This document shows positions 1 through 16,717 of a DNA stretch of 64,000 nt, one piece after another. The stretch spans positions 80,303 to 144,302 of IMG/VR virus record IMGVR_UViG_3300024239_000011; one strand, written 5' to 3'. This DNA comes from a virus. The notes below the pieces were generated by a model that made no database searches, was not told the DNA's origin, and worked only from the letters and a program-made list of their open reading frames with translations. Position 1 is the stretch's first letter. Every line of letters starts with the position of its first letter. Both the position numbers and the translations under genes were made by a program.

Positions 1-546
1 CGCGTTCTACCCCCTGAACTACACCCGCACCTCATCCTTGTAGCAAGACTATTTAGCACGGTCAATATTCTTTTTGTCCCTTATCCTCCAATCTGATCGG
101 TGGTAGTGCCTCATCAACCCCGTCAAAAATGACAGAAAGATAGTCTTGCCCAAAATCCCTTACAATTCTGGTGCGCAAACTAACACTCCGTGCGGTTGCC
201 TCTTCAATTGAACGTTGCTTTTTCAAATATTTTCTATCCATACAATTTCCTTTCGATTACCGGGTTGCTTGACCCGACGTTCAAAACCCCTTATACTATC
301 TAAGGTTTGAACAATTATGGTTAAAACAGCATGTTTCACAGCAATCTCGCCATACGCGACCGTACCCGGAAGAGTGCCGCGCCGCGTATCGACCCCAGCG
401 CGCCGGTTTACCAGTTTAAGGCGGAAGGGTTTATTGGTGGTCGTTTTGTCGTCAAGACCATTTGGGCACGGTCGGACGTGGAAGCGTCTTCCAAAGCGCG
501 TCGTTCGTTTGATATGTCCAGCGAAATCACGATGTACTCGGTATAA

Positions 547-847
547 TATGTCCACACCGGAACCCAAAAAGAAAGGGTTGGGGCGTAAGTGGTTCCCACC
601 TCGTGAGGATCGTGGGAATTACCGTTTCTTCAAGAAGTGGTCTGAAAAACTTGAAGTTCAAGCTAATATAGCCTTGACTTCTCAACTTTCAGTCTTCGTC
701 CGCCCCCAGATCAAGACTTGGCTCGCTACTGAAGTTGGGGAAGGGAAATTCGGGTTCGAGGTGGGTGAAACCACCGTGACCTTCGGTTTTAAGACGGAAA
801 TCGACCGAATGAAATTCGAACGGTTTCTTGAAGCGAATTACAAGTGA
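547..847 (+). CDS. hypothetical small protein
   Basis: ORF (C-terminal 100 aa of the 317..847 track ORF); ATG at 547 directly after a TATAAT box; no recognisable domain. Confidence 0.35.
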
Positions 848-852
848 AAGTT

Positions 853-946
853 TGGAGGAAAGGGTCGGACTCGAACCGACATACCCCTGCGTTTGCAGGC
901 ACCTGATTTGCACTCAAGGACCGTCGCCTATTCCGGTCACCTTTCC
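853..946 (-). tRNA. type II (long variable arm) tRNA, anticodon GCA (Cys-like), U73
   Basis: 7-bp acceptor GGAAAGG/CCTTTCC, D stem ACC/GGT, anticodon arm CTTGA-GTGCAAA-TCAGG, 21-nt variable arm with CCTGC/GCAGG hairpin, T arm GTCGG-TTCGAGT-CCGAC, encoded CCA. Confidence 0.55.
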
Positions 947-1083
947 ACAACCTTATTTACCTATTGCCACTCAAAGTAAAGTTTGAAATACGGCATGTCA
1001 ACATTTGCATGCCGTAAATAAGTGGTTATTTTACCCTCGTAAACCACTATCTAAATAAGCTGGGTGCAACGAGGGGTGTTTCC

Positions 1084-1524
1084 GTGCGTGTTCTTCTACT
1101 AGAAGAAAAAGTCAATGGACTAGAATTCGTCGTTCAGCATTTGCGAGGCGTCGGCGGAATGTCGTTCATGCTCGCAAAAGATATCAGCGAAATTGAACCC
1201 TTTGTTTTTAAGCAACACTACGATTTTTGTTTCGTGTGTTTAAATGGTGATTATATACCGAAACTTGATTATATCAAATCGGTACTCCATCCCGAAACCA
1301 TTCTTATTTTGGCACTTGATGACGATGACAGTGTAATTACCGATATTGTTGACGACGTAATTACCGCCTCAACTAAAGGCGAACGTCTATACCGGTTGGT
1401 CGGATTGTCTATAATGCAAAAGAAACATCAGGCGTGCCCCCAAAAATTTGAAATGGTCAAATCTCTTCGGGAAATTAGGCAAATTACCAGTTATCAAAAC
1501 GTCGTGATGGCAGGTAAAGCCTAG
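1084..1524 (+). CDS. hypothetical protein (possible receiver-like fold)
   Basis: 146-aa ORF; no confident motif. Confidence 0.4.
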   Translation: MRVLLLEEKVNGLEFVVQHLRGVGGMSFMLAKDISEIEPFVFKQHYDFCFVCLNGDYIPKLDYIKSVLHPETILILALDDDDSVITDIVDDVITASTKGERLYRLVGLSIMQKKHQACPQKFEMVKSLREIRQITSYQNVVMAGKA

Positions 1525-1583
1525 GACCACTTGACTACCACTATCCAAGATCGTATATTAGAACCTCCTTTGGAGGTTCCATC

Positions 1584-1832
1584 ATGAATGTGGAAATCAT
1601 TCGCGAAGTTACTCTGCGCTCGGTCGTTATGAACGTTGATCGGAGCGGTGAATTGGTTCTGGCAACCCTGTGTCGGGAATATTCCGCCAAGAACGTTACC
1701 GTTTCCATGGTCAATAACAAGGTGCGCATCGGTAAAGATGCCTACAGGATGACCGTACAGATCGATGACGCACACGCTGACGAATTTATGACCACGTTGC
1801 TGGCTCAGATCAACACTCGTCGGGCTGCCTAA
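1584..1832 (+). CDS. hypothetical protein
   Basis: GGAGG RBS at 1566-1570; TAATG stop/start overlap with next ORF. Confidence 0.55.
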   Translation: MNVEIIREVTLRSVVMNVDRSGELVLATLCREYSAKNVTVSMVNNKVRIGKDAYRMTVQIDDAHADEFMTTLLAQINTRRAA

Positions 1833-2062
1833 TGCCCGAACTCATCATTCGCGAGAAACAAGTACAACCGCGTGGCGCTCATTACCCACTACCCACGGCG
1901 ATGATCTCGGTCATGCTGTCTAATGGGAAGAACGAGACACTGCTTCAGAGTTTCCCCGACCGCGAAGGGCTAGTTGGTGCAAATATTGACCAGTTGCGCA
2001 TCCAGGCGACCGAATACGCCACAAGGGTGGCTGGCGTTCTTGGATGTAAAATCAGTCAATAG
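1832..2062 (+). CDS. hypothetical protein
   Basis: translationally coupled to upstream ORF. Confidence 0.45.
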   Translation: MPELIIREKQVQPRGAHYPLPTAMISVMLSNGKNETLLQSFPDREGLVGANIDQLRIQATEYATRVAGVLGCKISQ

Positions 2063-2311
2063 GCTGCCTGATCCAATCGTCCTCATCATCGCGAAATTCC
2101 CAGACACATCCCGATTCATGTCCATGGTGTGGTCCATTACCGACCGCCATGGTTTGTTGGCTTGCTGGTTTCTGATCAACCATGCTTGTTTGACGGCGTT
2201 GATCAACGCCCTCTGGAAATCCCGCCATAACGGGTAAATTGGCGGGGTGCTAAGCACCCCACCTTTCCGGGCGCTTCATACGCCGCTGTACAAAGTCCCG
2301 ATCTGCGTACA

Positions 2312-2572
2312 TCATACCTCACAACGCAAGGGTGCGTAAGCGTACCGGTGATGCAAACAATCCAGATGCTCTAACACGATGGTGCTGACCGCGCCAAGGT
2401 GATCGAATAAACTGGCTGACACCAGCGGACCCCAGTGAATTTCGCCATTATGAAAACGAAGGAATTTCTGCGTGGACAAATCCTTGATCGTGTATACCAC
2501 GTTCGGGTCCACATGCTGGGTGTCTTCGGAGGGTAGTACCACCGAGGCAGTAATCGGAATTTCAGTAGTCAT
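2312..2572 (-). CDS. hypothetical protein
   Basis: ATGA overlap with upstream HNH gene. Confidence 0.45.
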   Translation of the reverse strand: MTTEIPITASVVLPSEDTQHVDPNVVYTIKDLSTQKFLRFHNGEIHWGPLVSASLFDHLGAVSTIVLEHLDCLHHRYAYAPLRCEV

Positions 2573-2913
2573 TTCAATCCTTTCAAAAGCCGCTGTGAAT
2601 CGCGGTAAGCTTTATCGTAAGATGAACCAATGATTCGGTAAAGATCATTCGGGTGTAAACCCTCGACCCACCTCTTACCCCCACTGATGTGGAACTGTTC
2701 TGCCTTCATATGGCAGCCATTTTCACCATCACACAAAGAGATACCGTTGCTGGCGACATAGCCGCCATTTGGCATCAAATGGCGATCTGTGATGTGGTGA
2801 GCATCAAGCTTATATTTCGATGCAGGCTTGCTGCAAATGCGGCACTTATTGCCGTCCCGTTTGAACACAGCCTCACGGAATGCGTCGCGCACTAATTGTT
2901 TCTGTTTAGCCAT
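2569..2913 (-). CDS. small HNH endonuclease
   Basis: CxxC...DAHHI...N..LC...H motif arrangement typical of HNH nucleases. Confidence 0.6.
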   Translation of the reverse strand: MAKQKQLVRDAFREAVFKRDGNKCRICSKPASKYKLDAHHITDRHLMPNGGYVASNGISLCDGENGCHMKAEQFHISGGKRWVEGLHPNDLYRIIGSSYDKAYRDSQRLLKGLK

Positions 2914-2935
2914 GGTCTTTTAGTTGGTCGAGAAT

Positions 2936-3017
2936 GGTGCCGGGTGAGGGACTCGAACCCCCGATGTTTGTATCCCGACTTACGAAGTCGGTGCTGTCGC
3001 CGCTGAGCCAACCCGGC
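2936..3017 (-). tRNA. tRNA-Thr(CGT) with enlarged (~12 nt) variable region
   Basis: acceptor GCCGGGT/ACCCGGC, anticodon arm CCGAC-TTCGTAA-GTCGG, T arm GGGGG-TTCGAGT-CCCTC, CCA encoded; paralog of tRNA at 25116. Confidence 0.6.
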
Positions 3018-3379
3018 AGACAACCATTCTAATGACCTTGGTGCGGGATTCCCGATTCTCCACCCGCCCCACCCCGCTGAAGGACCATACATCCTTCTCT
3101 TTGTGGCTTGCTACGAGGTCATGCAATTTCTGGATCGTATCTTCTCTACACCACCCAAGGTCATAACGCCTCATTAGGCAAGTCTATTTATCAGTCCCCG
3201 GAGGTCTTAGTCAATCATTATATCGTGCGGACCACGGATACCACGACCACCGACTGGGTGGTTTTCAAATTCTTCCCCGAGAACATCATAAGAACAATCG
3301 TCACAAACCCAGCCTTCTTTGGCTTCATGCATCCCAGTGATGTCAGGGGACAATTCGATTTTGCACTTGGCACACTGCG

Positions 3380-3823
3380 TCATTTCGATCCGCCCAACTT
3401 GATTGTGAGAAACTGCCCTAGCGAGACATCGAACCAGTTTGTGTAGTTCCCACAGCTTCCGAGAAGGAACGGGGTCTCGTCTTTAACCACAGCCGGGTCA
3501 ATTTGTATCGCATGCAAGTCGGTGATCTCTACAACCGACGACACCCACTCTAATTTACCCCACTCCGGTCCCGCAACGTCGAACTCACTGCCACCATGAT
3601 CGGTGCAATAGAAGTCGTCCACGTCCTCATCGTACAGCCCAATTCCATAAAAGGAATAGCTCCCCTTGGTACACATGTTGGTGTATCGAAACAACCGACC
3701 GCGCTCCCGGAACAACTGTGCCACATCTTCCTTTGTGTTAGGCATAAGCGTTCCACAGACAGTGCAGCGGTACCCGTTCTCCCGTTTCACCGTGAATGAT
3801 CGACAATCGTGGCACTGAAGCAT
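3380..3823 (-). CDS. hypothetical Zn-ribbon protein
   Basis: 147-aa ORF with CxxC...CxxC. Confidence 0.4.
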   Translation of the reverse strand: MLQCHDCRSFTVKRENGYRCTVCGTLMPNTKEDVAQLFRERGRLFRYTNMCTKGSYSFYGIGLYDEDVDDFYCTDHGGSEFDVAGPEWGKLEWVSSVVEITDLHAIQIDPAVVKDETPFLLGSCGNYTNWFDVSLGQFLTIKLGGSK

Positions 3824-3838
3824 CGTCTACCTGCGTTT

Positions 3839-3905
3839 TGGCGTCCCCGAACCTGCGACCTTCAATTTAGGAGATTGACGCTCTTCCAATCTGAGCTACG
3901 GGGAC
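3839..3905 (-). pseudogene. tRNA-Arg(CCT)-like with deletion of most of the T arm
   Basis: acceptor GTCCCCG/CGGGGAC+G+CCA, D arm GCTC/GAGC, anticodon arm TCAAT-CTCCTAA-ATTGA, but only GCAGGTT remains between variable loop and acceptor 3' strand (66 nt total). Confidence 0.4.
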
Positions 3906-4203
3906 TTGAAAAGTTGAAATTATATATCATGGCATGTGCAGCGGATCAATCTTGCTGTTATGCCTATACCGATAAAAGCGATTAATTCATAAATAGATTC
4001 GTAGTAACAGGGTGGGTAAATGCTAAAGGTAGTAAGCTACACACCGTTTCCAAAACGAACCCCCGAAAGGGCGGAACTGAAGGTCGTTGTCTCCAACGAA
4101 CGTCCTCAGATGTCCCTATCTGATATTGTGGTTTCGTGGTGGCTTTTCCCGCTAATCCTGTTGACCAAAACCTACAGTTTCTCATTCACGTATGTGGAAA
4201 AAG

Positions 4204-4238
4204 AACGGGCGGCTCGATAAGCCGCCCGTTCCTTTTTG
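4204..4238. terminator. intrinsic terminator (bidirectional)
   Basis: GAACGGGCGGCT-cgat-AAGCCGCCCGTTC hairpin flanked by A and T tracts. Confidence 0.7.
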
Positions 4239-4260
4239 AAGACCGCCGAGAATATTGGTC

Positions 4261-4659
4261 TTAGTTAACCGACAGGGCGCTGTTGGTGTCGTCCACCTTC
4301 ACCTCGAACCAGCCGCCCCGGCTGTAGCCTCGCGCCCATCGAGCGCGAGGGGTCCACGCGCCCATATCGAAGGCATCCAGGGACAGCTTGTCACCCTTGG
4401 ACAGACCCAGGCTGGCAGCCACGTCTTCCGGCAGACGGAAACGGTTGCGGGTATTGTTCTTCTTGCTCACCAACACGGTAGCGGTAGCCGCCTTCTTCTC
4501 GGCATCGGTCAAAGCGACGCCAGCCGGGACGAACTTGATCAGGGTGTGTTCGCCATGCTTGGTGACGACGATGGTCATGGTGCCGACCGAAGCGACATTC
4601 GACTTGACGGTGATCTCGGTCTTGGCAGTGACGGGGGCGGTAGCGGAAACGTGGGTCAT
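4261..4659 (-). CDS. AbrB/MazE-like (swapped-hairpin) DNA-binding domain protein
   Basis: C-terminal RFRLPEDVAASLGLSKGDKLSL motif; overlapping GC-rich ORFs on other frames judged artefacts. Confidence 0.45.
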   Translation of the reverse strand: MTHVSATAPVTAKTEITVKSNVASVGTMTIVVTKHGEHTLIKFVPAGVALTDAEKKAATATVLVSKKNNTRNRFRLPEDVAASLGLSKGDKLSLDAFDMGAWTPRARWARGYSRGGWFEVKVDDTNSALSVN

Positions 4660-4860
4660 GGCGATCTCCTGTCTCTCTTTTGGGCGGTTTCGAACCGCCG
4701 AACCATGAGTAGATACTACCAGGGGTTTGATACCATGTCAACAGGTCGGACAACTTTTTCTTCGATTTTCTTTAGCATACAAGAACAACAAGTAATTCCA
4801 TTTTGTGGACGACTTTCATGTGGACATAAATATGGCTTTAACCCGGTCATGAGGTGAAAC

Positions 4861-5214
4861 ATGTTGGCATTTCGTCTAACTGCAATTCACGATAATAATA
4901 TCAGCAGACTACCAGAATACGACGGAATACCAATTTACCAAGCGGAAGACTGGCTCCGACATGCCGATATTTCATCAGACCAGTACACAATTCGTTATAT
5001 TCATCACGCCGATGACCGGGACGAATATGATCTTGTGTTTGAATCCAGCGACCTCATGCAGCAGTTCATCGCCGCTGTCGTTGCACCAAAGGCGCCGATC
5101 ATGATGGTGAATACCACGTGTCCGTATTGTGGTTATCTGACGCCGGTAGCGTCATCCGCCAAAGCCATTGAGCGGCTAAGTGTTTGTCCAGATTGCAGGA
5201 AAAAGGGGGCTTAA
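4861..5214 (+). CDS. hypothetical protein with C-terminal Zn ribbon
   Basis: CPYC...CPDC; followed by terminator. Confidence 0.5.
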   Translation: MLAFRLTAIHDNNISRLPEYDGIPIYQAEDWLRHADISSDQYTIRYIHHADDRDEYDLVFESSDLMQQFIAAVVAPKAPIMMVNTTCPYCGYLTPVASSAKAIERLSVCPDCRKKGA

Positions 5215-5220
5215 GCCCCC
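5195..5220. terminator. intrinsic terminator between convergent genes
   Basis: AAAAAGGGGGCTTAAGCCCCCTTTCTCTTT. Confidence 0.7.
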
Positions 5221-5227
5221 TTTCTCT

Positions 5228-6781
5228 TTACCAGTGTGCCAAGATCAGCGGCGTGTCTTGATAAGACTGCCAAATTCGTTCGGTGATATATGGCATCATC
5301 GGATGTGCCAGACGTAGGCATTGATCGAGGCACCGCATAATCGTTCCCAATGCATCCATGTCGTTCTGATCGTACAAACGATCCTTGGACGCCTCGATGT
5401 ACCAATCGCAGAACTCGTGTTTGAAGAACAATCGGAACGCATCCGCCGCTGCTCGGTAATCAAATGCATCCAGGGCATTTGCCATAGTACGTTTTGTTTG
5501 ATCGAGTGATGCGAGGATACGCAGATCATCAGGATGTTGAGACTCGTTCCAGGCAGATGGACGACCCATCCGGTCGAAATGACTGAGACAGAACCGCGAG
5601 GCTTGCCACAGTTTGTTTGCGAACCGTTTTGCAGAATCGAAAATATCGTTCGACAATCGGATATCCTGCCCGGCGGTACCGTTCTCCAAGAACCCGAACC
5701 GCAAAGCGTCACATCCGAATTTTTCGATGATTAGCAGAGGATCAATGCCGTTTCCCTTCGACTTACACATTTTTTCCCCATTGGCGTCACGAATGATGCC
5801 GTGGAGATAGATGGTGTCAAATGCCATCTGATCGGTCAGGGCAAGCCCCATCATCAACATACGGGCACACCAGAAGAATAGGATGTCCGCTGCCGTCTCG
5901 ATCATACTCGCCGGGTAGAAAGTTCGCAGATCGGGCGTGTCGTTTGGCCAGCCCAAAATGGCGAAGGGCCAAATTGCGGACGAGAACCATGTATCAAGGA
6001 CATCGTGATCTTGTCGGATGTCATCCCCCAGAATAGCTCTGGCATCCGCCTCTGTACGTGCCGCGCAAAAAGCACCAGAACCGTTGTACCAAATCGGGAT
6101 ACGGTGTCCCCACCAAATCTGACGCGAAATACACCACGGCTCGATGTTTTCGAGGAAATGACAGAAGGTTTTCCCTTCATATTCCGGGATAATCTTTAGT
6201 TCACCCGCATGATAACGTGCAAGAAGGTCGGTAGCCAGTTGACTAGTGTCCAACCACCACTGCCCATCCTGACGGTAAATCAATCCTTTTTCGAAACACC
6301 GGTTGAACGCCTCTAGGGTGGCGGTGGGATGTTCGGGGCTAAGCGTATACCATTCGCGCGACCAATCACAGCTTGCGCCCAGACGGCGAATTTGCTGGGT
6401 GATGCGCCCACCCGTCGTTTTCTGCCATGCATCTGCTTTGGCAAAATACTGGTCACGGGTTGGTTCGGTAATCCCTTCGGCGGCAAGCTCAGCCTTAATC
6501 TTAGCATCGGTTGCCAAACCCGCATGATCAGTACCGGGCTGCCATAGTGCATTAAAGCCCTGCATGCGCTTGTACCGGATCGTCGTATCCTGAAGGGTGG
6601 TGAAAAGTGCATGCCCCATGTGCAGTTGCCCAGTGATATTGGGCGGCGGCATTGGGATGTTGAAGGCTGGTGCCTCTGGGTTCATGCTTGGCTTAAAAAA
6701 GCCATTATTTTCCCAATGCGCGTAGATGTTCGGTTCTTCGGTTTTATAGTCGAAGTTCCGAGTTAGTTTGTTACGTCCCAC
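5228..6781 (-). CDS. valS: valyl-tRNA synthetase-like class Ia aaRS catalytic core, lacking CP1 editing domain and C-terminal domains
   Basis: HIGH motif PPPNITGQLHMGHA, WQPGTDHAGLAT, ISRQIWWGHRIPIWY, KMSKS-like KMCKSKGNG, start of anticodon-binding helix GCDALRF...NKLWQASRF. Only ~290 aa separate HIGH from KMSKS (ValRS normally ~500), so the editing domain is absent. Confidence 0.85.
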   Translation of the reverse strand: MGRNKLTRNFDYKTEEPNIYAHWENNGFFKPSMNPEAPAFNIPMPPPNITGQLHMGHALFTTLQDTTIRYKRMQGFNALWQPGTDHAGLATDAKIKAELAAEGITEPTRDQYFAKADAWQKTTGGRITQQIRRLGASCDWSREWYTLSPEHPTATLEAFNRCFEKGLIYRQDGQWWLDTSQLATDLLARYHAGELKIIPEYEGKTFCHFLENIEPWCISRQIWWGHRIPIWYNGSGAFCAARTEADARAILGDDIRQDHDVLDTWFSSAIWPFAILGWPNDTPDLRTFYPASMIETAADILFFWCARMLMMGLALTDQMAFDTIYLHGIIRDANGEKMCKSKGNGIDPLLIIEKFGCDALRFGFLENGTAGQDIRLSNDIFDSAKRFANKLWQASRFCLSHFDRMGRPSAWNESQHPDDLRILASLDQTKRTMANALDAFDYRAAADAFRLFFKHEFCDWYIEASKDRLYDQNDMDALGTIMRCLDQCLRLAHPMMPYITERIWQSYQDTPLILAHW

Positions 6782-6860
6782 ATGGTCATTTCGTTATCCT
6801 CCATAGTTTGAGTGACCAACCAAAACGATAAACAAATATTTTGGCTATGGCTATTTATTT

Positions 6861-7208
6861 TTGTTAGAATCCGGGGGAAAGCGAGGAATCATGCTTAACT
6901 TTTTTTTGCGTGTGAATAACCCCTTTAAAAAGGATACCCATTCAAATTTCCACCATCTATGGGGCTGGCACAAATCATTGACCCAATATAGGGAATTCGA
7001 AATCGAAACATATTATAGTCCGATGATCGTTGATGTTGAAATTGTGTTTGAAATGAAGGGACGTGATCACGCTGGTCCCCGAATCACCATTGGTATACTT
7101 GGATGGACAATTAGCGCATCAATCTATGATAATCGCCATTGGGATTATGATGCCGGATATTGGGAACAGGATGTGGTAGGGGATGACGGTACTGCCCCGC
7201 CTTCGTGA
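6861..7208 (+). CDS. hypothetical protein
   Basis: 115-aa ORF. Confidence 0.35.
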   Translation: MLESGGKRGIMLNFFLRVNNPFKKDTHSNFHHLWGWHKSLTQYREFEIETYYSPMIVDVEIVFEMKGRDHAGPRITIGILGWTISASIYDNRHWDYDAGYWEQDVVGDDGTAPPS

Positions 7209-7238
7209 CCGTTATGAGCGGTCGGCATTACTTTTATG

Positions 7239-7668
7239 CTAATCCCCAACAAAATTCACAACGTCGCTGATAAGGGTGTGTTGGTCAACACGCCCACCCG
7301 CCCTAAATTCATCATAGGTTAGCCACACCACTTCTTTGGTTTCCTTGGTGGGCTTACCCAGACCCTTAGGTTTCTTGATCTCAGCCACAAAGATGTATAG
7401 GTCGAAATATTCGTCTCGCCCTTCTACCCGATCTTTCTTGGCAAAGCACAAGTTGCGAACGTTGTCTGCCTTAATCCCAAGTTCTTCAGAACCTTCCCGG
7501 ATTGCAGCAGCTTCAATGGTTTCACCAAGGTCTTGTTTGCCTTTGGCAATTTGGGGCAATACTCCACCAAAACCCGCTTTTGACGGTACCATAAACAACA
7601 TACGCAAAATACCATTATCAATGTAATAGGGTACTAACCCAGCACGATTTGTCGTTGAAAGTCCCTTC
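7239..7668 (-). CDS. NUDIX hydrolase
   Basis: Nudix box AKGKQDLGETIEAAAIREGSEELGI; probable TTG start after GGGAGG RBS (track ORF extends to 7898). Confidence 0.7.
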
Positions 7669-7764
7669 AATTGGTACCTCCCGCCGTTCTTTATATTTAG
7701 ACTTAAACGTCCAATGGCAAGCAAATAATACCACCAATTTGCGGTATATTTGCTTGCCATGGCA

Positions 7765-8370
7765 TCATTTCCACTGGGTGCGGCGCTGCTGCTTCCAATT
7801 CTTCTGCGGGCGCCGCCAGTAATCATCCCAGACAGTCGGCAGGCACGCCTTGCGACGACGACCACGAGCCTTGATTCGATATTCGACCGCATCTTCATCG
7901 TAGTTCAGGAAATCGTTCTCACGAATCTCCTGGGTCGTTGCCATGTGACGAAGCGACTGGCACTTCCAGTGACGGCGGCAACGGATGCCCTTGACCGGAC
8001 CATTCCGGAAATCCGTCTCCGGATCGTAGTTAAAACGGGACCACTGCGTGCGGTTCGGGCACCCAAGCTGGAAAAACCGTTCCACAATGGTTTCCGGCGC
8101 AATCACCAGCCCCAATTCATCCAGAAGGACAAACTGCCCGCGCGTCCACGACGCCGGTTCCAGGGAGCTACGAATGTACGCCATCCGCGCAACACGGACG
8201 ATCTCACGATGAAACGTGGGTTCGTCCATCAAGGAAGTCTTAACCACCCCATTGTAGGCAATATAAATGAATGGACGACTTGCCCGAGATTTCAGGAAAG
8301 CATCCAAACTTTCATAGACCCACGTTTCCTTGCTGTGGATGTCCTTGAGAGTGACTTCATACTTGTACAT
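7765..8370 (-). CDS. hypothetical protein, paralog of 8585..9169, basic W/R/K-rich C-terminal tail
   Basis: shared block RENDFLNYDEDA.EY.I.ARG...WDD....KNWK.QR.T.W. Confidence 0.6.
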   Translation of the reverse strand: MYKYEVTLKDIHSKETWVYESLDAFLKSRASRPFIYIAYNGVVKTSLMDEPTFHREIVRVARMAYIRSSLEPASWTRGQFVLLDELGLVIAPETIVERFFQLGCPNRTQWSRFNYDPETDFRNGPVKGIRCRRHWKCQSLRHMATTQEIRENDFLNYDEDAVEYRIKARGRRRKACLPTVWDDYWRRPQKNWKQQRRTQWK

Positions 8371-8454
8371 ATTGGTTCTCCTTTAACGCTAATTGCGTTA
8401 ACGGAAACCCAAATATTCCTCGCGAATAACGTACATTTTATTCTCCGACGTTGA

Positions 8455-8522
8455 TGGACGCTGCCGGATTTGAACCGCGCTCGGCTCCGTCGAGCCTATC
8501 CCAGTTGGTCAAATACCCGTCC
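8455..8522 (-). tRNA. degenerate tRNA-like sequence (68 nt)
   Basis: minus-strand T arm GCGG-TTCAAAT-CCGG, partial acceptor pairing GGACG/CGTCC, hairpin GCTCG-ACGGAGC-CGAGC; no canonical D arm or variable loop. Confidence 0.3.
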
Positions 8523-8537
8523 AGGGCGCCCCATAGA

Positions 8538-8612
8538 TGGTGGAGCGCGTGGGGATCGAACCCACTGACCAGCGCCCTAAGTTGTTAACGCCAGCGGGTT
8601 TTCCGCTGACGC
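8538..8612 (-). other. tRNA 3'-half-like fragment
   Basis: canonical T arm GTGGG-TTCGATC-CCCAC plus acceptor 3' strand GCGCTCC-A-CCA, but no matching 5' acceptor strand found. Confidence 0.3.
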
Positions 8613-9169
8613 TTCCAGTTTTTTTCGTGGTGGCGACGCTGAGCGAAATCGTCCCAGGTGTCGGGTAATTCCTTATAGCGGCTACCACGTGCCCGAATAT
8701 GGTACTCTCGGGCATCTTCATCGTAGTTCAGGAAATCGTTTTCACGATGCTCCTGGGTGGTGCGGATGCCCTGGCAGAAACGACCATGGCGCTTGTGAAC
8801 GCCGGGCACCGGACCACACCGGAAATTCTTGGCGTAGGTCCAACCCTTCTTGCGCATCCACTCAGTTTCAACAAGTTCGTGGGTCAGGTGCCCATGATAC
8901 AGGGCGACCCACAGCACGGCTTCCGGCTGAATGATGTGCGCACCGGTCTGATCACACAGGTACCAACCATCACGCTGCTCGGTATAATCCTCGAAGCTGC
9001 TCAAACCGCACTGCGGCTTGTCCAGCATGTCGCGATACACATACCGATACTGGGTCTGGTTAAAAAAATCCTGAAACGAATCGAAACTGGCTTGGTAGTA
9101 GCAGATTTCGTAAACGCCGCGCCACCGGCTCCAATAAATTTGCTTCAGGATGACAGGTCCGTTGTACAT
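8585..9169 (-). CDS. hypothetical protein, paralog of 7765..8370
   Basis: shared C-terminal block and basic tail. Confidence 0.6.
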   Translation of the reverse strand: MYNGPVILKQIYWSRWRGVYEICYYQASFDSFQDFFNQTQYRYVYRDMLDKPQCGLSSFEDYTEQRDGWYLCDQTGAHIIQPEAVLWVALYHGHLTHELVETEWMRKKGWTYAKNFRCGPVPGVHKRHGRFCQGIRTTQEHRENDFLNYDEDAREYHIRARGSRYKELPDTWDDFAQRRHHEKNWKRQRKTRWR

Positions 9170-9338
9170 GGTTTCCTCCTAGAGACGAAGCGTCCCTAAT
9201 GGAAACCGGCATACTCCCGAATGTTCATGACACGGACTCCCGTGGTTGATGATGTCCTTATAGCGATATTTACTAGCGCCGTCAATATCTGGCGTTGTAA
9301 TCACCTAAAAATCATGTATCCTCACGCCGTTATTATGG

Positions 9339-9692
9339 GTGAGTGTCATGGACCTGAAGCACATCACGACAAACCGTTGTCCACATTGCGGCTGCACGAT
9401 TGTAACCGAAGAAACCGTTGAAACCACCAAGGGGGTGAACGGTATCGAGATTCGCGTACACGTGAATGGACAACGGTGGGAAACCAGCAAATTCGCGTGC
9501 GGTCACAAGATCGCCTGGATTCCGAACTTCTCCCGCGAGGAAGTCAAGCAGGAATGCAAGCAGTCCGACGCGGCGAAATTGAAGAAAGCCAAGCGGGCCA
9601 AGGCGACCGAAGAGGCGAAGGCGTTTATCGCTACCCTCGACGTGGACGAAGACTGGAAGAACGATGTTCGTCTACCGGTCGATTGGGACTAA
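9339..9692 (+). CDS. hypothetical Zn-ribbon protein
   Basis: CPHCGC...CGH; lysine-rich C-terminal half. Confidence 0.5.
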   Translation: MSVMDLKHITTNRCPHCGCTIVTEETVETTKGVNGIEIRVHVNGQRWETSKFACGHKIAWIPNFSREEVKQECKQSDAAKLKKAKRAKATEEAKAFIATLDVDEDWKNDVRLPVDWD

Positions 9693-9704
9693 AAGAAAAG
9701 AAAA

Positions 9705-9731
9705 GCGGCACCGAAAGGTGCCGCTTTTCTT
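9705..9731 (+). terminator. intrinsic terminator
   Basis: GCGGCACC-gaaa-GGTGCCGC then TTTTCTTT. Confidence 0.75.
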
Positions 9732-9740
9732 TGTAATGAG

Positions 9741-9815
9741 TGGTAGTCGGAGAGGGATTTGAACCCCCGGCCACCGCCTTATCAAGACGACGCTCTACCG
9801 CTGAGCTATCCGACT
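9741..9815 (-). tRNA. tRNA-Ile(GAT)
   Basis: acceptor AGTCGGA/TCCGACT, D GCTC/GAGC, anticodon loop TTGATAA, T arm GGGGG-TTCAAAT-CCCTC, CCA. Confidence 0.75.
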
Positions 9816-10505
9816 ATAGCCTGCCAGGGAATTTCTTCCCCAGCGGCGTTGTTCTCGATACCCTCTTCCCGATTACTCGGTATCCCCTGTCCCAGGTAGA
9901 TCGCTTTCGCGACGGGCGCTGGCTATTGGGTTTCCCCTCAACCGACCAGTCCAGCGTAAGGTGCTTCGTTTTGACTCAACTGCGTCCAGTTTCCTAGCAC
10001 AGTCCCTAAGGACATCGCAGCGGAGTGCATCTATTTATACATCCACCCACGATGGGTCAATTTCAACAGTCGGTGCCTTTCCTTAGCTCATCGGGGTCGG
10101 AAATCAAAACTTTCGTTCTGCAAACTGTCGTGTTGAAGGGATGCCAGACTCCCTTCCGCCAACCAACGGGAACTATATCTGACCGTCACCCCGTTTATGC
10201 TCTTGCGTTTTATCCCGCATCGGTTCTGCGGTAGATGATATTTAGTCCTTACGACTTGGCCTCATCCAGCGGCGCTCGCCCGAACCTGATCCACTTTACC
10301 GTGAACTTCATCTTTAACGACCGCTAGGCGCCCGAGCGGTCGGGCACCTGTGGTATACGCGGGGTGCCGCCACGATCAAGCCCAGCAGAATACCCGTCAT
10401 CGTCTGGACGGGCACAGAATGACGAACACCAAGCGCGATTGCTTCCGGGTCACCACCACGACAGGGTTTAACAAGAAACCACGTCGTGTGTCTATTTATA
10501 TTTGG

Positions 10506-10579
10506 TGGTCCCGACTGGACTCGAACCAGCGCAAACCTACCTTCGGAGGGTAGTGCTCTTCCAACTGAGCTACGGGACC
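10506..10579 (-). tRNA. tRNA-Arg(CCG)
   Basis: acceptor GGTCCCG/CGGGACC, anticodon arm CTACC-CTCCGAA-GGTAG, TTCGAGT T-loop, CCA. Confidence 0.8.
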
Positions 10580-10582
10580 AAA

Positions 10583-10789
10583 TCAATGAGGTTCCTCACC
10601 TTCAGGAACCTCTTCAAGAAAATACGGCAAAACCATATCATCTTCAAGTTTATAAATGAGGCACTTCTTACCATCAGCAGACGTTGCCCACCCAAGCCGG
10701 TCGGGATGGAAATCACCGGTTTGTGTCCTGATATCAGCAACAAGGATTTCGTAAAGATCGCGCGGTAAGACTTCAGCGTGTTCGAACAT
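10583..10789 (-). CDS. hypothetical protein
   Basis: internal ATG start chosen to avoid overlap with upstream ORF; track ORF is 10583..10927. Confidence 0.3.
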   Translation of the reverse strand: MFEHAEVLPRDLYEILVADIRTQTGDFHPDRLGWATSADGKKCLIYKLEDDMVLPYFLEEVPEGEEPH

Positions 10790-10898
10790 GGCAATCCTTT
10801 GTATATCGAAAAGCAGACCGTAGCTAAATAAAGGCACCACGTCAATTTTCGATACGGTGAAACAAGGGTAACGGTCGCCAATCACGCGGCGTAAGGCG

Positions 10899-11318
10899 TT
10901 AATCAATCTCGTAACGCTGTTCTTCAAAGAATGACTTCACCGACACGTTCCCATCAACCATGTCCTGAGTAATCTCGTATTCGAAAACACGCCGATCCTC
11001 CCGTGGCTGGTCTTGTTCGATTAAATTTTCTAACCGGAATTCATCGAAATACACGATGGTCACATCGGGACCGAAGAATTTTTTGAACTCGATGGCAATT
11101 TTTCGCCCTTCTTCGGCGAAACCTTCGCAACCCCAATCGTCGTTGTCCAGCGCGGTTTCAAACCACTGGCGCCAGCGATAATGCCGATCAAAGAGGTCAT
11201 CGGGCAACCCGAGTTCGTCCACGTCCAGCATAACACCATGTTCATCCCACACACCGTCCGACGAATAGTCAGCCATTATTTTGATGTATTTCATCAAAAC
11301 CACAGTTTGCGGAGCCAC
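10899..11318 (-). CDS. hypothetical acidic protein
   Basis: 139-aa ORF. Confidence 0.45.
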   Translation of the reverse strand: MAPQTVVLMKYIKIMADYSSDGVWDEHGVMLDVDELGLPDDLFDRHYRWRQWFETALDNDDWGCEGFAEEGRKIAIEFKKFFGPDVTIVYFDEFRLENLIEQDQPREDRRVFEYEITQDMVDGNVSVKSFFEEQRYEID

Positions 11319-11438
11319 GGCGTGGTCAGCGTCCTCAACGGGCGCCGTGGTCCTTTGGGTGCCGTGTAGGCATCACCGAAGCCGATATCCAAGCGTCCTT
11401 GGTGGTTATTTCGGGAGAGGGCATCACGACTAGGAAAT

Positions 11439-11511
11439 TGGAGCGGGTGAAGGGGATCGAACCCTCGTCCTCAGAATGGGAATCTGATGCACTACCACTG
11501 TGCTACACCCG
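11439..11511 (-). tRNA. tRNA-Gly(CCC)
   Basis: acceptor GCGGGTG/CACCCGC, anticodon arm TCAGA-TTCCCAT-TCTGA, T arm GAGGG-TTCGATC-CCCTT, CCA. Confidence 0.7.
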
Positions 11512-12021
11512 CATTGAGCATCCAACCCTTACAATGCTCAGCCACCATTTCGAGTGGATTTTTCGTACTACACAGAATTGCTTCCGTGGTTCCAAGGCAT
11601 AGTCCAACTTGCGTCCTCTGATCGGTCTGCCTATTAGAGTACCCGATCTTCCAACTCATCAGGGCGTTCTTTCCAGAGCGACCAAAAGTCTGTCTGTACT
11701 CAAACCTGAGGACGTGCCCCGGTGGCTTTTTCGACGGACGATACACCGGAGAGCCACCCCAATGTACCGGGAACCACGGTGGTTTGCTCCCTCCCGCATG
11801 CGGCTAACATGCACAGGAACCTTGACCATCCCGTACCTCTTTACCTGATCCGGGGAAACCCTGTCCACCTTACAGGTGGCATTTCCCATTCCTTAGCAGC
11901 AACAGGGTTTTTCTGCTGTCGGATCAAATTACCCATCCTATTTATCTCAACCATAATCAAATGTCAATTTTCCCTGACGCCCGGCATAAATATATAAAAT
12001 CAAAACAGGAGTCAACAAACA

Positions 12022-13308
12022 ATGGGCATTAAAGTGTATAATACTACTTTAGGTGGGATTAATTTTAAAACACCAACCACGTTGAGTGACCCATACTTAC
12101 AAAATGTTGTCCTTCATATTGATAGTAGTTTGCCTCAATTATCAGACAAAACAGGAAAAATATTTACTAAATATGGCACTGCTTCATCTGGAAATTCGGG
12201 GTTTAATGCTGCCTATTTTGATGCAAATACTTATTGGGAAATAGACTCCATTTACGATTGGGGTCTTTCAGATTTCACGTTTGAATACGAAATATATCAC
12301 AATGCCACACCTACCACTGGTGGTATTTTCGGCTATCGTGCATCATCAACCGATAATTTTTCAGTATATTATGGTTGGCCAACCACAGGCTATCATATGA
12401 TATTAAATGATGTTGAATTAATAGGAACAACAGCGGTTCCGCCGGTTGGGCAATTTCAACATTATGCATGGTGCCGTAAGGGTAATACGTTAACTCTATA
12501 TATCGATGGTGTGCTTATAACCACAAAATCATTTACAGGCTCATTAACAAAAAACTTACCAAAAATGTTTTTAGGTTGGATCAATTTTGGAAGCGCATTT
12601 AATGGTATGATAAGAAATTTCACATTCACCAAATCATGCCGTTACCTTTCTAATTTCACGCCATCAAATTTGGATAGAAATCAACTCAACGACCCGTTAT
12701 GGAATTCGGTGGTATTTCATATACCCGCTTCTGGATCAAATGGGTCATTGCTTAAAAATACAAAAACTAATAATACATTAGTACGACATGGCACCTCTGC
12801 TATTATCAATAGCATTTTTACCAAAAATACAGTGTATGCAAATGGTGGTTACTACAGTACCCCAGGATCAATTGATTTTCAATTTGGACGTGATGATTTC
12901 ACTATTGAAATGTGGGGGTATGATTTAACTCGCTCAGCAGAAGCACCGTGGATCAGTACCGGATGGGTCAATACCAATTCATGGGTAATTCATCCACAGC
13001 ATTCCAGTCATAATTTTTCATTTTGGTCACAAGCATACGGAACAACCAATCCAATCGTTAAAGGACCAGCATTGCCACTACGCGAATGGGTTCATGTTGC
13101 CATATCAAGACAAGCAGGAACTACCCGGTTGTTCAATAATGGAACACTTGTTGCAACAAGTACGGTCAATTATAATATAACCAACCCAACCCTATTACCA
13201 TTCGAAATCGGGCACGAAAGTCCATTAACAAGAACCGTCAATGGATGGTATGCTGATATTCGAATTACCAAAGGCGTATCAAGATATAATCAATCATTTA
13301 CCGTTTGA
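12022..13308 (+). CDS. tandem LamG/concanavalin-A-like lectin-fold protein (possible receptor-binding or adhesin)
   Basis: two repeats each with W..VA.SR..GT..LY.NG pattern; AGGAG RBS; strongly AT-rich compared with neighbours. Confidence 0.7.
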   Translation: MGIKVYNTTLGGINFKTPTTLSDPYLQNVVLHIDSSLPQLSDKTGKIFTKYGTASSGNSGFNAAYFDANTYWEIDSIYDWGLSDFTFEYEIYHNATPTTGGIFGYRASSTDNFSVYYGWPTTGYHMILNDVELIGTTAVPPVGQFQHYAWCRKGNTLTLYIDGVLITTKSFTGSLTKNLPKMFLGWINFGSAFNGMIRNFTFTKSCRYLSNFTPSNLDRNQLNDPLWNSVVFHIPASGSNGSLLKNTKTNNTLVRHGTSAIINSIFTKNTVYANGGYYSTPGSIDFQFGRDDFTIEMWGYDLTRSAEAPWISTGWVNTNSWVIHPQHSSHNFSFWSQAYGTTNPIVKGPALPLREWVHVAISRQAGTTRLFNNGTLVATSTVNYNITNPTLLPFEIGHESPLTRTVNGWYADIRITKGVSRYNQSFTV

Positions 13309-13319
13309 TAAAGGAAAAG

Positions 13320-13347
13320 GCTGGTAGGTCAACGACCTACCAGCCTT
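13320..13347. repeat. hairpin repeat copy 1 (GGCTGGTAGGTC..GACCTACCAGCC)
   Basis: near-identical copy at 14054-14081; both followed by AAACTTGGTGGAGC. Confidence 0.7.
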
Positions 13348-13425
13348 TAAACTTGGTGGAGCCTGCCCGAAACGAATTTTCGACGTTGATAAATACATCG
13401 TGAACCAAAACAACAAGGCTCCACG

Positions 13426-14046
13426 ATGGAAATTGAACTCAAAGAGAAACTTTCTAAACGACCACAAAATCAGAATTTTGGCGCCCGTGCAGGACGTGAT
13501 TATGGCTTGAAGGTTGCTGCTGAACATCGGGCTGCTTATGCCCTGTCTCCGAAACATTGTACCGAATGCGACTCGGAACTCCCGTATGAACAACGCGACT
13601 GCAAATTTTGCTCTCGGTCATGTGCCGCCTCGCACAACAACAAAGAACGCAATCGACCAAAACGCGAAGCCATCTGTCTTCATTGTGGGAAAACTTTCTC
13701 GGCTAACCGAAAAAGCCATGGAAAGTTTTGCTCTCTTAAATGCCAAGGACAACACAAATGGGAAAATGAAACAAAACCACGTATTCAAGAAGGAAAAGTA
13801 CGTGAACGAAAAACGCTCAAGAAATTCCTCATTGAACGGGACGGACATCAATGTTCGTGCTGTGGAAACACTGAGTGGCTGGGCAAACCCATTCCCATTG
13901 AAGTAGATCACATCGACGGCAACCCAGCTAATGACATGCCTGACAATTTGCGTCTACTCTGCCCAAATTGTCATAGTATGACAGAAACCTACAAAGGTAA
14001 GAATATTGGGTCCGGTAGGGGTGCGAGAGGAATATCGCGATCCTAA
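13426..14046 (+). CDS. HNH homing endonuclease (tRNA-adjacent family)
   Basis: Cys-rich N-terminus, C-terminal EVDHIDGNPANDMPDNLRLLCPNCHS. Confidence 0.8.
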   Translation: MEIELKEKLSKRPQNQNFGARAGRDYGLKVAAEHRAAYALSPKHCTECDSELPYEQRDCKFCSRSCAASHNNKERNRPKREAICLHCGKTFSANRKSHGKFCSLKCQGQHKWENETKPRIQEGKVRERKTLKKFLIERDGHQCSCCGNTEWLGKPIPIEVDHIDGNPANDMPDNLRLLCPNCHSMTETYKGKNIGSGRGARGISRS

Positions 14047-14053
14047 AAACAAT

Positions 14054-14081
14054 GGCTGGTAGGTCGATGACCTACCAGCCA
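14054..14081. repeat. hairpin repeat copy 2
   Basis: GGCTGGTAGGTCGATGACCTACCAGCC. Confidence 0.7.
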
Positions 14082-14091
14082 CTAAACTTGG

Positions 14092-14165
14092 TGGAGCAGA
14101 GGGGGATCGAACCCCTGACCTGAAGCTTGCAAAGCTACCGCTCGTCCCAACTGAGCTACTGCCCC
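14092..14165 (-). tRNA. tRNA-Ala(TGC)
   Basis: acceptor GGGGCAG/CTGCTCC with G3:U70, D GCTC/GAGC, anticodon loop TTTGCAA, T arm GGGG-TTCGATC-CCCC, CCA. Confidence 0.7.
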
Positions 14166-14234
14166 ATAAATGACAACTCGCGTCGCCATGACCAAACTAT
14201 TTATACGAACCGCTCGGGCGGCGCAATAAGAAAA

Positions 14235-14915
14235 TTAAAAAATCTCGATTCCTATTTCCCCCAGGAATTTCGTCAACGGGCGGGATGGTACAAACAATTT
14301 TTCTCGTTTGGCCAGCAGAACTTTGCCCATGCCTTCCTGGGTACGTTTATTCACAATTTTTCGATGTTGAAATACTTGTAAAACTTCGGTCGCATCAAAC
14401 CCCATCATGGTTACTGCGATGGTGTCATGTTTAATACGAAAAACGTGTTTTTCGTCAACATGATGTTTCACTTCATCGATAACCATTCGCATCACAAGCT
14501 CCCCAATATCATACCCGAAAGCTTTAGTAAAATGGTTCATGTTGAATATAGTTAACATGCATATAGGGGTATCATTTCGCTGAAGCGACAAGAAATCAAT
14601 GAATACCTGTCGATCTTCATCAACATCAAGTGAAATCTTTTTGAAAGCATCAAAGTCTGCACGCAGGTTACCAACATCAGCCGTAACCTCTTCAACGTCA
14701 CGCACCACCCCATTAAGGTCAGAACGGGTTCGAATGGTTGCATCTAGAAGAATTTCAGCAGCTTCACGTAATACATCAATATTTTGAGCATTTTGAATAT
14801 GGTCGGCGTAGGTGGACAACGTTGCATCAAAAACTGTTGCCCGATGCTTCATCCGCCCGAGAATTTCTTCGATTTTCGAAAGGTTCTGTTCAAACCTGCC
14901 GTTATGGGACATCAA
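14235..14915 (-). CDS. degenerate GGDEF-like (nucleotide cyclase fold) protein with N-terminal coiled coil
   Basis: FGYDIGELVMRMVIDEV ... FRIKHDTIAV aligns with the YGHxxGDxxL ... RxGGDEF region but GGDE is replaced by KHDT. Confidence 0.45.
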   Translation of the reverse strand: MMSHNGRFEQNLSKIEEILGRMKHRATVFDATLSTYADHIQNAQNIDVLREAAEILLDATIRTRSDLNGVVRDVEEVTADVGNLRADFDAFKKISLDVDEDRQVFIDFLSLQRNDTPICMLTIFNMNHFTKAFGYDIGELVMRMVIDEVKHHVDEKHVFRIKHDTIAVTMMGFDATEVLQVFQHRKIVNKRTQEGMGKVLLAKREKLFVPSRPLTKFLGEIGIEIF

Positions 14916-15105
14916 TGCTCACCAAAAATAATTGTTCGTAACCTACTTAGCCGATTTTTGATATCAGGGAACGTAGGATATAACCCACCTATTGCAAGTA
15001 TAAACATATTATGGTATCTAGATAGTCGAAGAAAAAGAAGGCATAACTAAAAAAAGAGGCGCAATAATAGGGCGCCCCTTTTCACAACCAATAAAGGCGG
15101 TTTCA

Positions 15106-15807
15106 ATGTACACCCTCCCCACCACAAAATTTCTCGTTACTATTGTTTTTTCGCTGACCTTCTATGGTATTTGTAATTTAATCGCGTCACCCGTGCCATT
15201 TACCCTTGGTACTTTTTGGTATCTACCAGAAACATGGGAACCGTTCTGGTGGGCTATTGCACCGATGCTGGTGTGGGGATGTGCGATAAACATCATCTTT
15301 ACTGCCGCACACAAAGGTGACCACCCTGGTGAAATTTTGGTTGCGGGAACCCTTGTCAGTCTTCATGCCGGAATTCTTGAGGAACTGGTTTACAGATGGG
15401 CTGCATTTTATGCCGCTATCATCAGCGTCAAGATCGGTGATTTTCTGCTTGGCGGGTTTATGTTCCCCCATGGGTTGACGTGGGTTTTCCACAATTACGT
15501 GGTTGGACATATCGTCAATTTCACCACATTTGGTTTATTGAACGACTTTATCTTCCATCCAACGACCTGGGCGATTGGTGCGGGAATGATCGCGGTTAAT
15601 GCCACTTTCCGCGATGGTCACAAATACCAGGGTTTCTGGGGTTTTTGGAATAGCTGGTTCTGCGGTATGTACCTGTTCTACGTGATGTTCACGTATGGAC
15701 TTCCAGCAGCAATTATCACGCACTTTTTGTACGACTTCATCATCTTCGCAACCATTGCCGCAAAGGTAGCGGTTTTACCGAATTCGATGAAACGGGTCAG
15801 ACTATAA
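15106..15807 (+). CDS. CPBP-family (CAAX protease / Abi) intramembrane protease
   Basis: multi-TM protein with EELVYRW, FMFPHG...HN and HIVN motifs. Confidence 0.7.
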   Translation: MYTLPTTKFLVTIVFSLTFYGICNLIASPVPFTLGTFWYLPETWEPFWWAIAPMLVWGCAINIIFTAAHKGDHPGEILVAGTLVSLHAGILEELVYRWAAFYAAIISVKIGDFLLGGFMFPHGLTWVFHNYVVGHIVNFTTFGLLNDFIFHPTTWAIGAGMIAVNATFRDGHKYQGFWGFWNSWFCGMYLFYVMFTYGLPAAIITHFLYDFIIFATIAAKVAVLPNSMKRVRL

Positions 15808-15810
15808 TTT

Positions 15811-16428: not shown

Positions 16429-16471
16429 AAATACAAAATGGGTGGGCAATGCCCACCCATTTGTTGTACTA

Positions 16472-16548: not shown

Positions 16549-16555
16549 ATAACTT

Positions 16556-16716: not shown

Positions 16717-16717
16717 A

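Follow-up and report, generated by a model that had tools for sequence, protein, structure and literature searches.

The window analyzed here is a 64,000-nucleotide stretch of viral DNA (IMG/VR record IMGVR_UViG_3300024239_000011, positions 80,303 to 144,302), and the gene of interest is the open reading frame (ORF) at 5228-6781 on its minus strand, which encodes a protein related to valyl-tRNA synthetase (ValRS). The reading frame is intact over all 517 amino acids, and past its stop codon the downstream DNA is taken up by an ORF of the other strand. The original prediction, made from the sequence alone, had proposed a ValRS-like core with intact class Ia catalytic signatures, no CP1 editing domain, and a truncated anticodon-binding part. 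Every signature motif that it quoted was located in the ORF, namely PPPNITGQLHMGHA at residues 45-58, WQPGTDHAGLAT at 80-91, LIYRQDGQWW at 167-176, WWGHRIPIWY at 223-232, and KMCKSKGNG at 337-345. Its estimate of about 170 amino acids after the KMSKS loop was also close, with 176 residues between that loop and the C-terminus. The features of the gene and of its surroundings are collected in Table 1.

A valyl-tRNA synthetase core with two domain losses

Searches against curated families placed the protein with ValRS. Both Pfam families to which an alignment had been proposed were matched: PF00133 (tRNA-synt_1) with an E-value of 5.8e-107 and PF08264 (Anticodon_1) with an E-value of 1.1e-22, the latter over residues 421-516 and profile positions 3-103 of 148. 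Among the NCBIfam models, the valS equivalogs NF004349 and TIGR00422 ranked first and aligned in two stretches, one covering residues 1-172 of the query and the other placing residues 174-517 on profile positions 352-695 of 860. The valS models scored 615 and 571 bits, compared with 268 for ileS, 111 for leuS, and 99 for metG. The top match among sequences in the PDB was the Thermus thermophilus ValRS (1GAX, E=6e-120, compared with 1.4e-42 for IleRS). In this alignment, residues 6-172 of the query correspond to residues 3-170 of the Thermus enzyme and residues 147-508 to residues 332-695, and nothing in the phage protein is equivalent to Thermus residues ~171-345 (CP1) or 705-862. Across the shared parts, the identity to full-length ValRS is approximately 43-48%. 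By both sequence and predicted fold, the 517-amino-acid protein resembles ValRS more than it does IleRS, LeuRS, or MetRS. Its catalytic motifs, amino acid pocket, best matches, and anticodon-binding domain are those of ValRS, and three attributes of the family are absent: the CP1 domain, the C-terminal domains, and a curated equivalog score. The protein is thus a ValRS-like core that lies outside of the canonical family membership.

The catalytic center is well preserved. The family alignments show no variation at residues H57, K337, and K340. The valine pocket of the Thermus enzyme, which we take to consist of P41, P42, D81, W456, I491, and W495 as given by Fukai et al. in 2000, aligns with P45, P46, D85, W265, I300, and W304 of the phage protein. 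The last four of these are invariant across short and full-length ValRS, and the two prolines are at least 90% conserved in a 12-sequence alignment. In total, the short and the full-length sets have 103 conserved positions in common (including H57, D85, W265, I300, W304, K337, K340, K390, E463, and K466), and only eight positions behave as class-specific switches between them. Since the valine pocket and the HIGH and KMSKS motifs are unchanged, the activation of valine would be the expected chemistry of the protein.

The original prediction also stated that CP1 is missing between LIYRQDGQWW and the downstream core, and both the alignments and the structural model agree with this. In the multiple alignment with full-length ValRS, a single clean gap of ~190 columns takes out the CP1 editing domain along with the CxxC knuckles that precede and follow it. 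A two-residue beta-turn, D172-G173, stands where the ~180-amino-acid CP1 domain and its zinc knuckles would be. At the second zinc site of the full-length enzymes (CxxC...CxxC before DTWFSS) the phage protein has no cysteines, and both Cys4 zinc knuckles are missing from it. An AlphaFold2 model, which was built on a 65-sequence alignment, reached a pLDDT of 94.8 and a pTM of 0.93 and placed a beta-hairpin (strands 168-171 and 174-177) at the site where CP1 leaves the core. No extra or unassigned domain was present in this model. A Foldseek search with it returned 1GAX as the top match, with a query-normalised TM-score of 0.92 and an E-value of 1.4e-33, followed by the CP1-less LeuRS of Mycoplasma mobile (3ZIU) and MetRS cores of ~500 amino acids. 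A cryptic editing domain, which would have contradicted the loss of CP1, is ruled out by the confident model together with the Foldseek result.

At the other end of the protein, the prediction of a missing C-terminal coiled coil was borne out, as the chain ends just past the helical bundle. Its C-terminus coincides with the point at which the stem-binding domain starts in full-length ValRS (Thermus residues 700-705), and both that domain and the coiled coil (PF10458) are missing. The further claim that the helical domain is truncated and the enzyme "anticodon-blind" did not hold: the five-helix bundle is complete in the model (residues 378-405, 417-438, 442-471, 475-492, and 497-505), and only the domains past the bundle are gone. 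Within the bundle, short and full-length ValRS share an invariant K390, E463, and K466, and the conservation of W392, L469, and H493 reaches at least 90%. Thermus K581 and R587, which contact the anticodon, align with the invariant K390 and with R396, a residue kept in at least 90% of the sequences of the 12-sequence alignment.

A clade of short synthetases on huge phage contigs

Homologues of the same short build were frequent in a search of 5.8 billion proteins, where at least 48 of the best 120 matches were 429-535 amino acids long and shared 46-64% identity with the phage protein. These short homologues have in common the junction LIYRxD|GQWW and a C-terminus of the form LITxxW. The PF10458 coiled coil, found in the full-length sequences among the best 120 matches, occurred in none of the short ones. 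Several short homologues sit on contigs of 200-650 kb, and nine come from IMG/VR viral contigs, the longest of which reaches 578 kb. In addition, the cultured 319-kb Stenotrophomonas jumbo phages RAS14 and CM1 each gave a single-piece match without CP1; the RAS14 gene, annotated as "valyl-tRNA synthetase", encodes 449 amino acids with the same junction. After clustering at 50% identity, about eight short representatives remained among the best 150 matches.

A neighbor-joining tree of 49 short sequences (including that of RAS14) and 30 full-length enzymes recovered the short ones as one group in 100 of 100 bootstraps. The mean identity is 56% within this clade and 43% to the full-length enzymes, and pairwise identities across the clade range from 44% to 83%. 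Pairwise dN/dS between family members is ~0.13-0.19, and the clade is under purifying selection. With a mean identity of just 56% among its members, the clade appears to be old and maintained. The full-length comparators in the tree were picked as best matches, which limits what the tree says about the origin of the clade.

Two further CP1-less proteins of 742 (P0165) and 811 (P0144) amino acids have the same junction and carry long acidic C-terminal tails unrelated to ValRS, and the second of these also has a 57-amino-acid insertion after the WPN motif. In some short members, the segment with the second zinc site is deleted as well. One homologue (P0275, WP_422513522.1) is annotated in the assembly of an isolate, Sphingomonas sp. 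3-13AW, on a contig of 581,572 bp that could be a huge phage, a prophage, or a megaplasmid. This protein is named by NCBI only as a "class I tRNA ligase family protein", and its N-terminus, MTNDHVGR, begins five codons upstream of the start position used here.

Scans of cellular genomes and metagenomes returned only full-length ValRS among the matches listed, which is not a census and does not imply absence. Only full-length ValRS was found among the plasmids of PLSDB, and the viral structure library BFVD held no equivalent of the short protein. Pattern scans of IMG/VR DNA for further 5' ends of the family returned the known loci and eight chance matches without ValRS. For the DNA of the window itself, no close relative was found among deposited phages. 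So far, the clade has been observed almost only on contigs of huge or jumbo phages.

The short form was also considered as a possible fragment of a frameshifted valS, an outcome that would have undone the original prediction. Neither the CP1 nor the C-terminal parts taken from three full-length ValRS had a match in the 64-kb window (tblastn, best E-values 0.1-0.4), and no remnant of either part was found in CM1, whose genome is complete, or in the surroundings of 12 related genes out to 10 kb. An alignment that ran past the ValRS stop codon proved to be noise without real similarity. An independent assembly (ENA ERZ27245855, contig k141_178484, 869,618 bp) is 99.994% identical to positions 1-16781 of the window, with one base different in 16,781, and carries the same 517-amino-acid ORF with one amino acid difference. 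An exact protein look-up for the window contig gave no entry for P0001 or P0070, and it was the near-identical P0274 that was recovered. A frameshifted or fragmentary valS is ruled out by the absence of remnants, by truncation points common to at least 48 homologues, and by this second assembly. The same phage is thus represented by an ENA contig of 870 kb and a JGI contig of 543 kb. If the former is neither a concatemer nor a misassembly, it would surpass the 735 kb given by PMC7162821 for the largest reported phage genome.

Valine tRNAs, the 5' leader, and neighboring genes

The window contains 39 tRNA genes, all on the minus strand, and four of them encode tRNA-Val (Table 1). All four have A35, C36, and A73 together with an encoded CCA end, and they are probable substrates of the phage enzyme. 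Valine identity rests on A35, C36, and A73 (PMC9976931), and with these canonical elements in all four genes, there is no need to postulate atypical tRNA identity rules. In the tRNA-Val(CAC), the D-loop is only 4 nt long. A tRNA-Val(UAC) is also encoded by CM1.

Several other properties of the tRNA sets were observed. The tRNA array of the window (853-25198) includes long genes of 83-94 nt for Cys (853-946 and 19667-19754), Thr (2935-3017), Asn (18615-18706), Gly (19570-19654), and Lys (19321-19410 and 23321-23409), whose length suggests introns or extra arms. One gene (16120-16203) was called by ARAGORN as a tRNA whose anticodon, ctta, has 4 bases. Among the 29 tRNAs of CM1, two have the stop-codon anticodons CTA and TTA (23010-23085 and 26911-26985), which hints at stop-codon suppression or recoding. 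Genes of the homing-endonuclease type are scattered in the tRNA region and comprise seven HNH genes, one LAGLIDADG-like gene, and one for an HNH-associated repeat protein.

Table 1. Positions of the ValRS gene, its parts, and other features of the window.
Feature	Position (nt)	Strand	Details	Basis
Short ValRS gene	5228-6781	-	517 codons and stop; annotated GTG start at 6781	ORF list
Catalytic Rossmann-fold core and stem-contact fold	5651-6781	-	residues 1-377	1GAX alignment
HIGH motif	6611-6622	-	HMGH, residues 54-57	1GAX alignment
CP1 deletion junction	6251-6280	-	IYRQDGQWWL, residues 168-177	alignment gap and AlphaFold2 strands
KMSKS loop	5759-5773	-	reads KMCKS, residues 337-341	1GAX and family alignments
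Helix-bundle anticodon-binding domain	5231-5650	-	residues 378-517	PF08264 and AlphaFold2 helices
5' leader	6763-6802	-	Shine-Dalgarno GGAGGA 6797-6802; ATG at 6789; 9-codon ORF 6789-6763	sequence
tRNA-Val(CAC) and tRNA-Val(UAC)	16643-16792	-	16643-16716 and 16718-16792	ARAGORN
Two tRNA-Val(GAC)	20501-20833	-	20501-20575 and 20758-20833, flanking a tRNA-Ala	ARAGORN
Homing-endonuclease-type genes	13426-14046, 21637-22425, 24447-24980, 51932-52534	+
Homing-endonuclease-type genes	16810-17436, 22648-23232, 25300-26121, 38018-38650, 56618-57253	-
YqeY-like free-standing protein	30537-31136	-		PF09424, E=8e-31

A short leader ORF lies at the 5' end of the synthetase gene. Its +1 frame encodes M T M W D V T N stop, and it overlaps the annotated GTG of ValRS. 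The Shine-Dalgarno sequence GGAGGA is 8 nt from the ATG of the leader and 16 nt from the ValRS GTG. Each of the 12 related loci, and RAS14 as well, has a comparable leader ORF; these ORFs are 6-9 codons long, follow the pattern M..(W/L)(D/E)V..stop, and always include a valine codon. The hexamer GGACGT is invariant in 11 of the 12 loci, with zero synonymous changes. In seven of the 12 relatives, GTT replaces the GTG of the ValRS frame, and neither the first 16 conserved codons nor the stretch before them contain an ATG, GTG, or TTG; three of these seven (L008-L010) lack even a CTG or ATH codon upstream of the conserved N-terminus. The N-terminal 43 codons of these start-less loci nevertheless show a dN/dS of 0.13-0.29, indicative of purifying selection, and the residues that they encode form the first Rossmann-fold strand in the AlphaFold2 model.

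About half of the genes offer no start codon in the ValRS frame itself, and ribosomes would therefore have to enter that frame from the leader. The arrangement in RAS14, where the leader ends in GUA-UGA and overlaps the ValRS AUG as in classical translational coupling, suggests a route by termination and reinitiation. Alternatively, a -1 shift may occur at G_GAC_GUA if decoding of the A-site valine codon is slow, and the conserved leader valine codon hints at a sensing of Val-tRNA-Val. That the leader ORF with its valine codon gates the expression of the synthetase, with ribosomes reaching the ValRS frame by either of these routes, is in our judgment an improbable proposal. If the route by a -1 shift were true, synthesis of the enzyme would directly follow the supply of Val-tRNA-Val, a new kind of synthetase autoregulation. 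A stimulatory RNA structure past the putative shift site was sought and rejected: a weak 5-bp hairpin (CUUCG...CGAAG) recurs ~17 nt downstream and is explained by conserved F-D and E-E codons.

The remaining genes of the window include phage-type genes as well as host-like accessory ones. Neither a trans-editing factor nor a second synthetase was identified among the ~60 ORFs scanned with Pfam. Just upstream of the ValRS gene and of a NUDIX gene (7239-7898) sit two paralogous ORFs of ~200 amino acids (7765-8370 and 8585-9169, both on the minus strand), which have no Pfam match and a common C-terminal motif, ENDFLNYDEDA.EY.I.ARG... The YqeY-like gene adjoins genes for a flotillin (31139-32815) and a YqiJ-like protein (32833-33459). 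A weak match to the RNA 2'-phosphotransferase Tpt1/KptA was found at 35674-36234. The host-like accessory genes encode an SspB-like adaptor (33546-33971, minus strand), an AI-2E family transporter (44777-45823, minus strand), a response-regulator receiver domain (47072-47518, minus strand), and an ART-PolyVal ADP-ribosyltransferase (62094-63056, plus strand).

Proposed function and comparison with known systems

The best explanation for the protein, in which we have moderate confidence on the basis of sequence and modelling, is an active, anticodon-reading, and editing-free minimal ValRS. Such an enzyme would activate valine and transfer it to tRNA-Val, both phage-encoded and probably that of the host, recognizing A35 and C36 through the retained helix bundle and A73 and the CCA end through the catalytic core. 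Post-transfer editing of Thr-tRNA-Val and aminobutyryl-tRNA-Val is the function of CP1 (PMC7373986; PMC11295145); the minimal enzyme would therefore perform no editing in cis, and these products would not be hydrolyzed by it. Instead, they might be cleared in trans by the full-length ValRS of the host or by free-standing deacylases, or be tolerated within a short infection. The loss of the stem-binding domain and the coiled coil would remove contacts to the tRNA elbow, which probably weakens tRNA binding and may relax the requirements on tRNA shape. A wider tolerance for odd tRNA shapes, such as the tRNA-Val(CAC) with its short D-loop, is speculation. The role of the enzyme would be to supply Val-tRNA-Val for phage proteins independently of the host enzyme, within a large set of phage tRNA and translation genes.

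Several observations weigh against this explanation. The protein misses the cut-offs of both valS equivalogs (615.2 vs. 704 for NF004349 and 571.2 vs. 612.1 for TIGR00422), and its KMSKS loop is spelled KMCKS. Translation of the gene is also hard to account for, since the Shine-Dalgarno sequence is placed for an out-of-frame ATG and seven of the 12 relatives have no in-frame ATG, GTG, or TTG. The search for a partner or a second ValRS covered a window of 64 kb out of a genome of 543-870 kb. In addition, Fukai et al. reportedly found in 2003 that the C-terminal coiled coil of Thermus ValRS adds substantially to the aminoacylation of tRNA-Val. Because the coiled coil aids aminoacylation in that enzyme, the activity of the phage protein could be low without a partner.

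Among the alternatives, one is that the loss of editing was itself selected, so that Thr-tRNA-Val and aminobutyryl-tRNA-Val are made, or atypical tRNAs are charged, and the fidelity of valine codons is relaxed. With CP1 lost, relaxed Thr/Val fidelity or the charging of atypical tRNAs, which the original prediction had raised, may reasonably be supposed, and the former is plausible. The complete absence of CP1 throughout the clade fits adaptive mistranslation, as does a valine pocket identical to that of canonical ValRS, which shows no compensating gain in specificity. The lack of a trans-editing factor among the ~60 window ORFs scanned with Pfam points the same way, and the CP1-less LeuRS of M. 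mobile does mischarge (PMC3643597). However, there is no sign that mistranslation benefits a phage, the tRNA-Val genes of the window have canonical identity elements, and genome economy or a lost constraint (with the host ValRS editing in trans) explains the deletion equally well. We therefore consider selection for mistranslation to be unlikely.

An alternative of similarly low probability is that the protein works only with a partner in trans that replaces the missing tRNA-binding or editing modules. The YqeY-like protein is a candidate for such a partner, as a YqeY/GatB-type domain protein encoded in the same window. GatB and the GlnRS of Deinococcus carry a domain of the YqeY type as an appendage that binds tRNA, and the YqeY-like protein might be a helper in trans for domain-poor synthetases. 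The C-terminal domains that ValRS has lost here are those that normally hold the tRNA. Nevertheless, the YqeY-like gene lies 24 kb away from the ValRS gene, beside genes for membrane proteins, and the sister enzyme MetRS functions in the same minimal layout with no partner. The complete CM1 genome also contains no CP1-like fragment that could act in trans.

It is slightly more doubtful still that the protein is a paralogue without a role in translation, which would bind or sequester tRNA-Val or pass Val-AMP to another acceptor in the manner of GluQ-RS or MshC. The missed equivalog cut-offs and the loss of two canonical domains would suit such a paralogue, and truncated synthetase paralogues with new functions are known (see the references in PMC9437257). 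Such proteins typically lose the anticodon domain or change the pocket, whereas the phage protein keeps both. Its HIGH and KMSKS motifs, pocket, and helix bundle are conserved at the positions of true ValRS with only the eight class-specific switches, and its gene resides in tRNA-rich genomes that include tRNA-Val. Finally, a full-length valS that is decaying into a pseudogene or was misassembled, an explanation to which the two missing domains, the unusual GTG start, and the poor Shine-Dalgarno spacing might point, is already contradicted by the intact ORF, the nearly identical independent assembly, truncation points that are the same across a clade of 44-83% pairwise identity, a dN/dS far below 1, and a confident predicted fold, and is highly improbable.

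If the protein is indeed an active minimal ValRS, its clade bears on several broader questions. ValRS is a textbook "double-sieve" enzyme, and to our knowledge, every characterized ValRS keeps its CP1 editing domain. A full-text literature search found no published description of a natural CP1-less ValRS or of a truncated phage ValRS. The minimal ValRS lineage of huge phages is real, conserved, and apparently undescribed. It bears on the minimum size of a working, anticodon-reading class Ia synthetase; on whether proofreading of valine codons is dispensable in the presence of an editing-proficient host enzyme or during a short burst of protein synthesis; and on whether giant phages alter the accuracy of translation or the selectivity for tRNAs in infected cells. 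A compact ValRS of 450-520 amino acids with its own tRNA-Val is also a possible part for engineered translation systems. With members of the clade present in two cultured phages of Stenotrophomonas, RAS14 and CM1, these questions are open to direct tests.

Of the known systems, the ValRS of T. thermophilus (1GAX; TIGR00422/NF004349) is the closest, sharing with the phage protein the Rossmann core, the HIGH and KMSKS motifs, the pocket, the stem-contact fold, and the helix-bundle anticodon domain. Bacterial ValRS differ from it in size (~860-900 amino acids, compared with 517) and in the presence of CP1, the zinc knuckles, the stem-binding domain, and the coiled coil. In overall layout, the phage protein resembles the minimal core of MetRS (for example, Staphylococcus aureus 7WPN), which likewise comprises a class Ia Rossmann core and a helix-bundle anticodon domain in ~500 amino acids, with no separate editing domain. 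MetRS structures superposed on the phage model with target-normalised TM-scores of 0.75-0.81, and MetRS achieves anticodon-dependent charging in this same minimal layout. However, MetRS belongs to another family with a different pocket and only ~20% identity, and the phage protein reached the layout secondarily, by deletion from a ValRS ancestor.

Cells tolerate an editing-defective ValRS under normal conditions. Editing-defective mutants of the E. coli enzyme, such as T222P, place Thr and aminobutyrate onto tRNA-Val (Doring 2001 and Nangle 2002, as relayed in PMC11295145). Those are laboratory point mutants in which the CP1 fold and the tRNA-binding domains are kept, whereas the phage form is a natural and long-maintained deletion of the whole domain. 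For huge phages with genomes over 200 kb and large tRNA sets, synthetases have been described and proposed to charge phage tRNA variants and to redirect host translation (Al-Shayeb et al., 2020, PMC7162821). The available part of that work gives synthetase counts and a phylogeny, and no clade of CP1-less, C-terminally truncated ValRS was found in it.

A precedent for the loss of CP1, and the classic case among class Ia enzymes, is the LeuRS of M. mobile (3ZIU), which naturally lacks this domain, has a nonapeptide linker in its place, and still aminoacylates, while mischarging Ile (PMC3643597). As in the phage protein, a short linker replaces CP1 and the catalytic core is otherwise intact. The two differ in family and in setting, as the M. 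mobile enzyme is the sole LeuRS of a reduced cellular genome, whereas the phage enzyme coexists with the ValRS of its host. The phage enzyme is also the more reduced of the two, with a two-residue turn rather than a nonapeptide in place of CP1 and with the additional loss of the C-terminal tRNA-binding domains.

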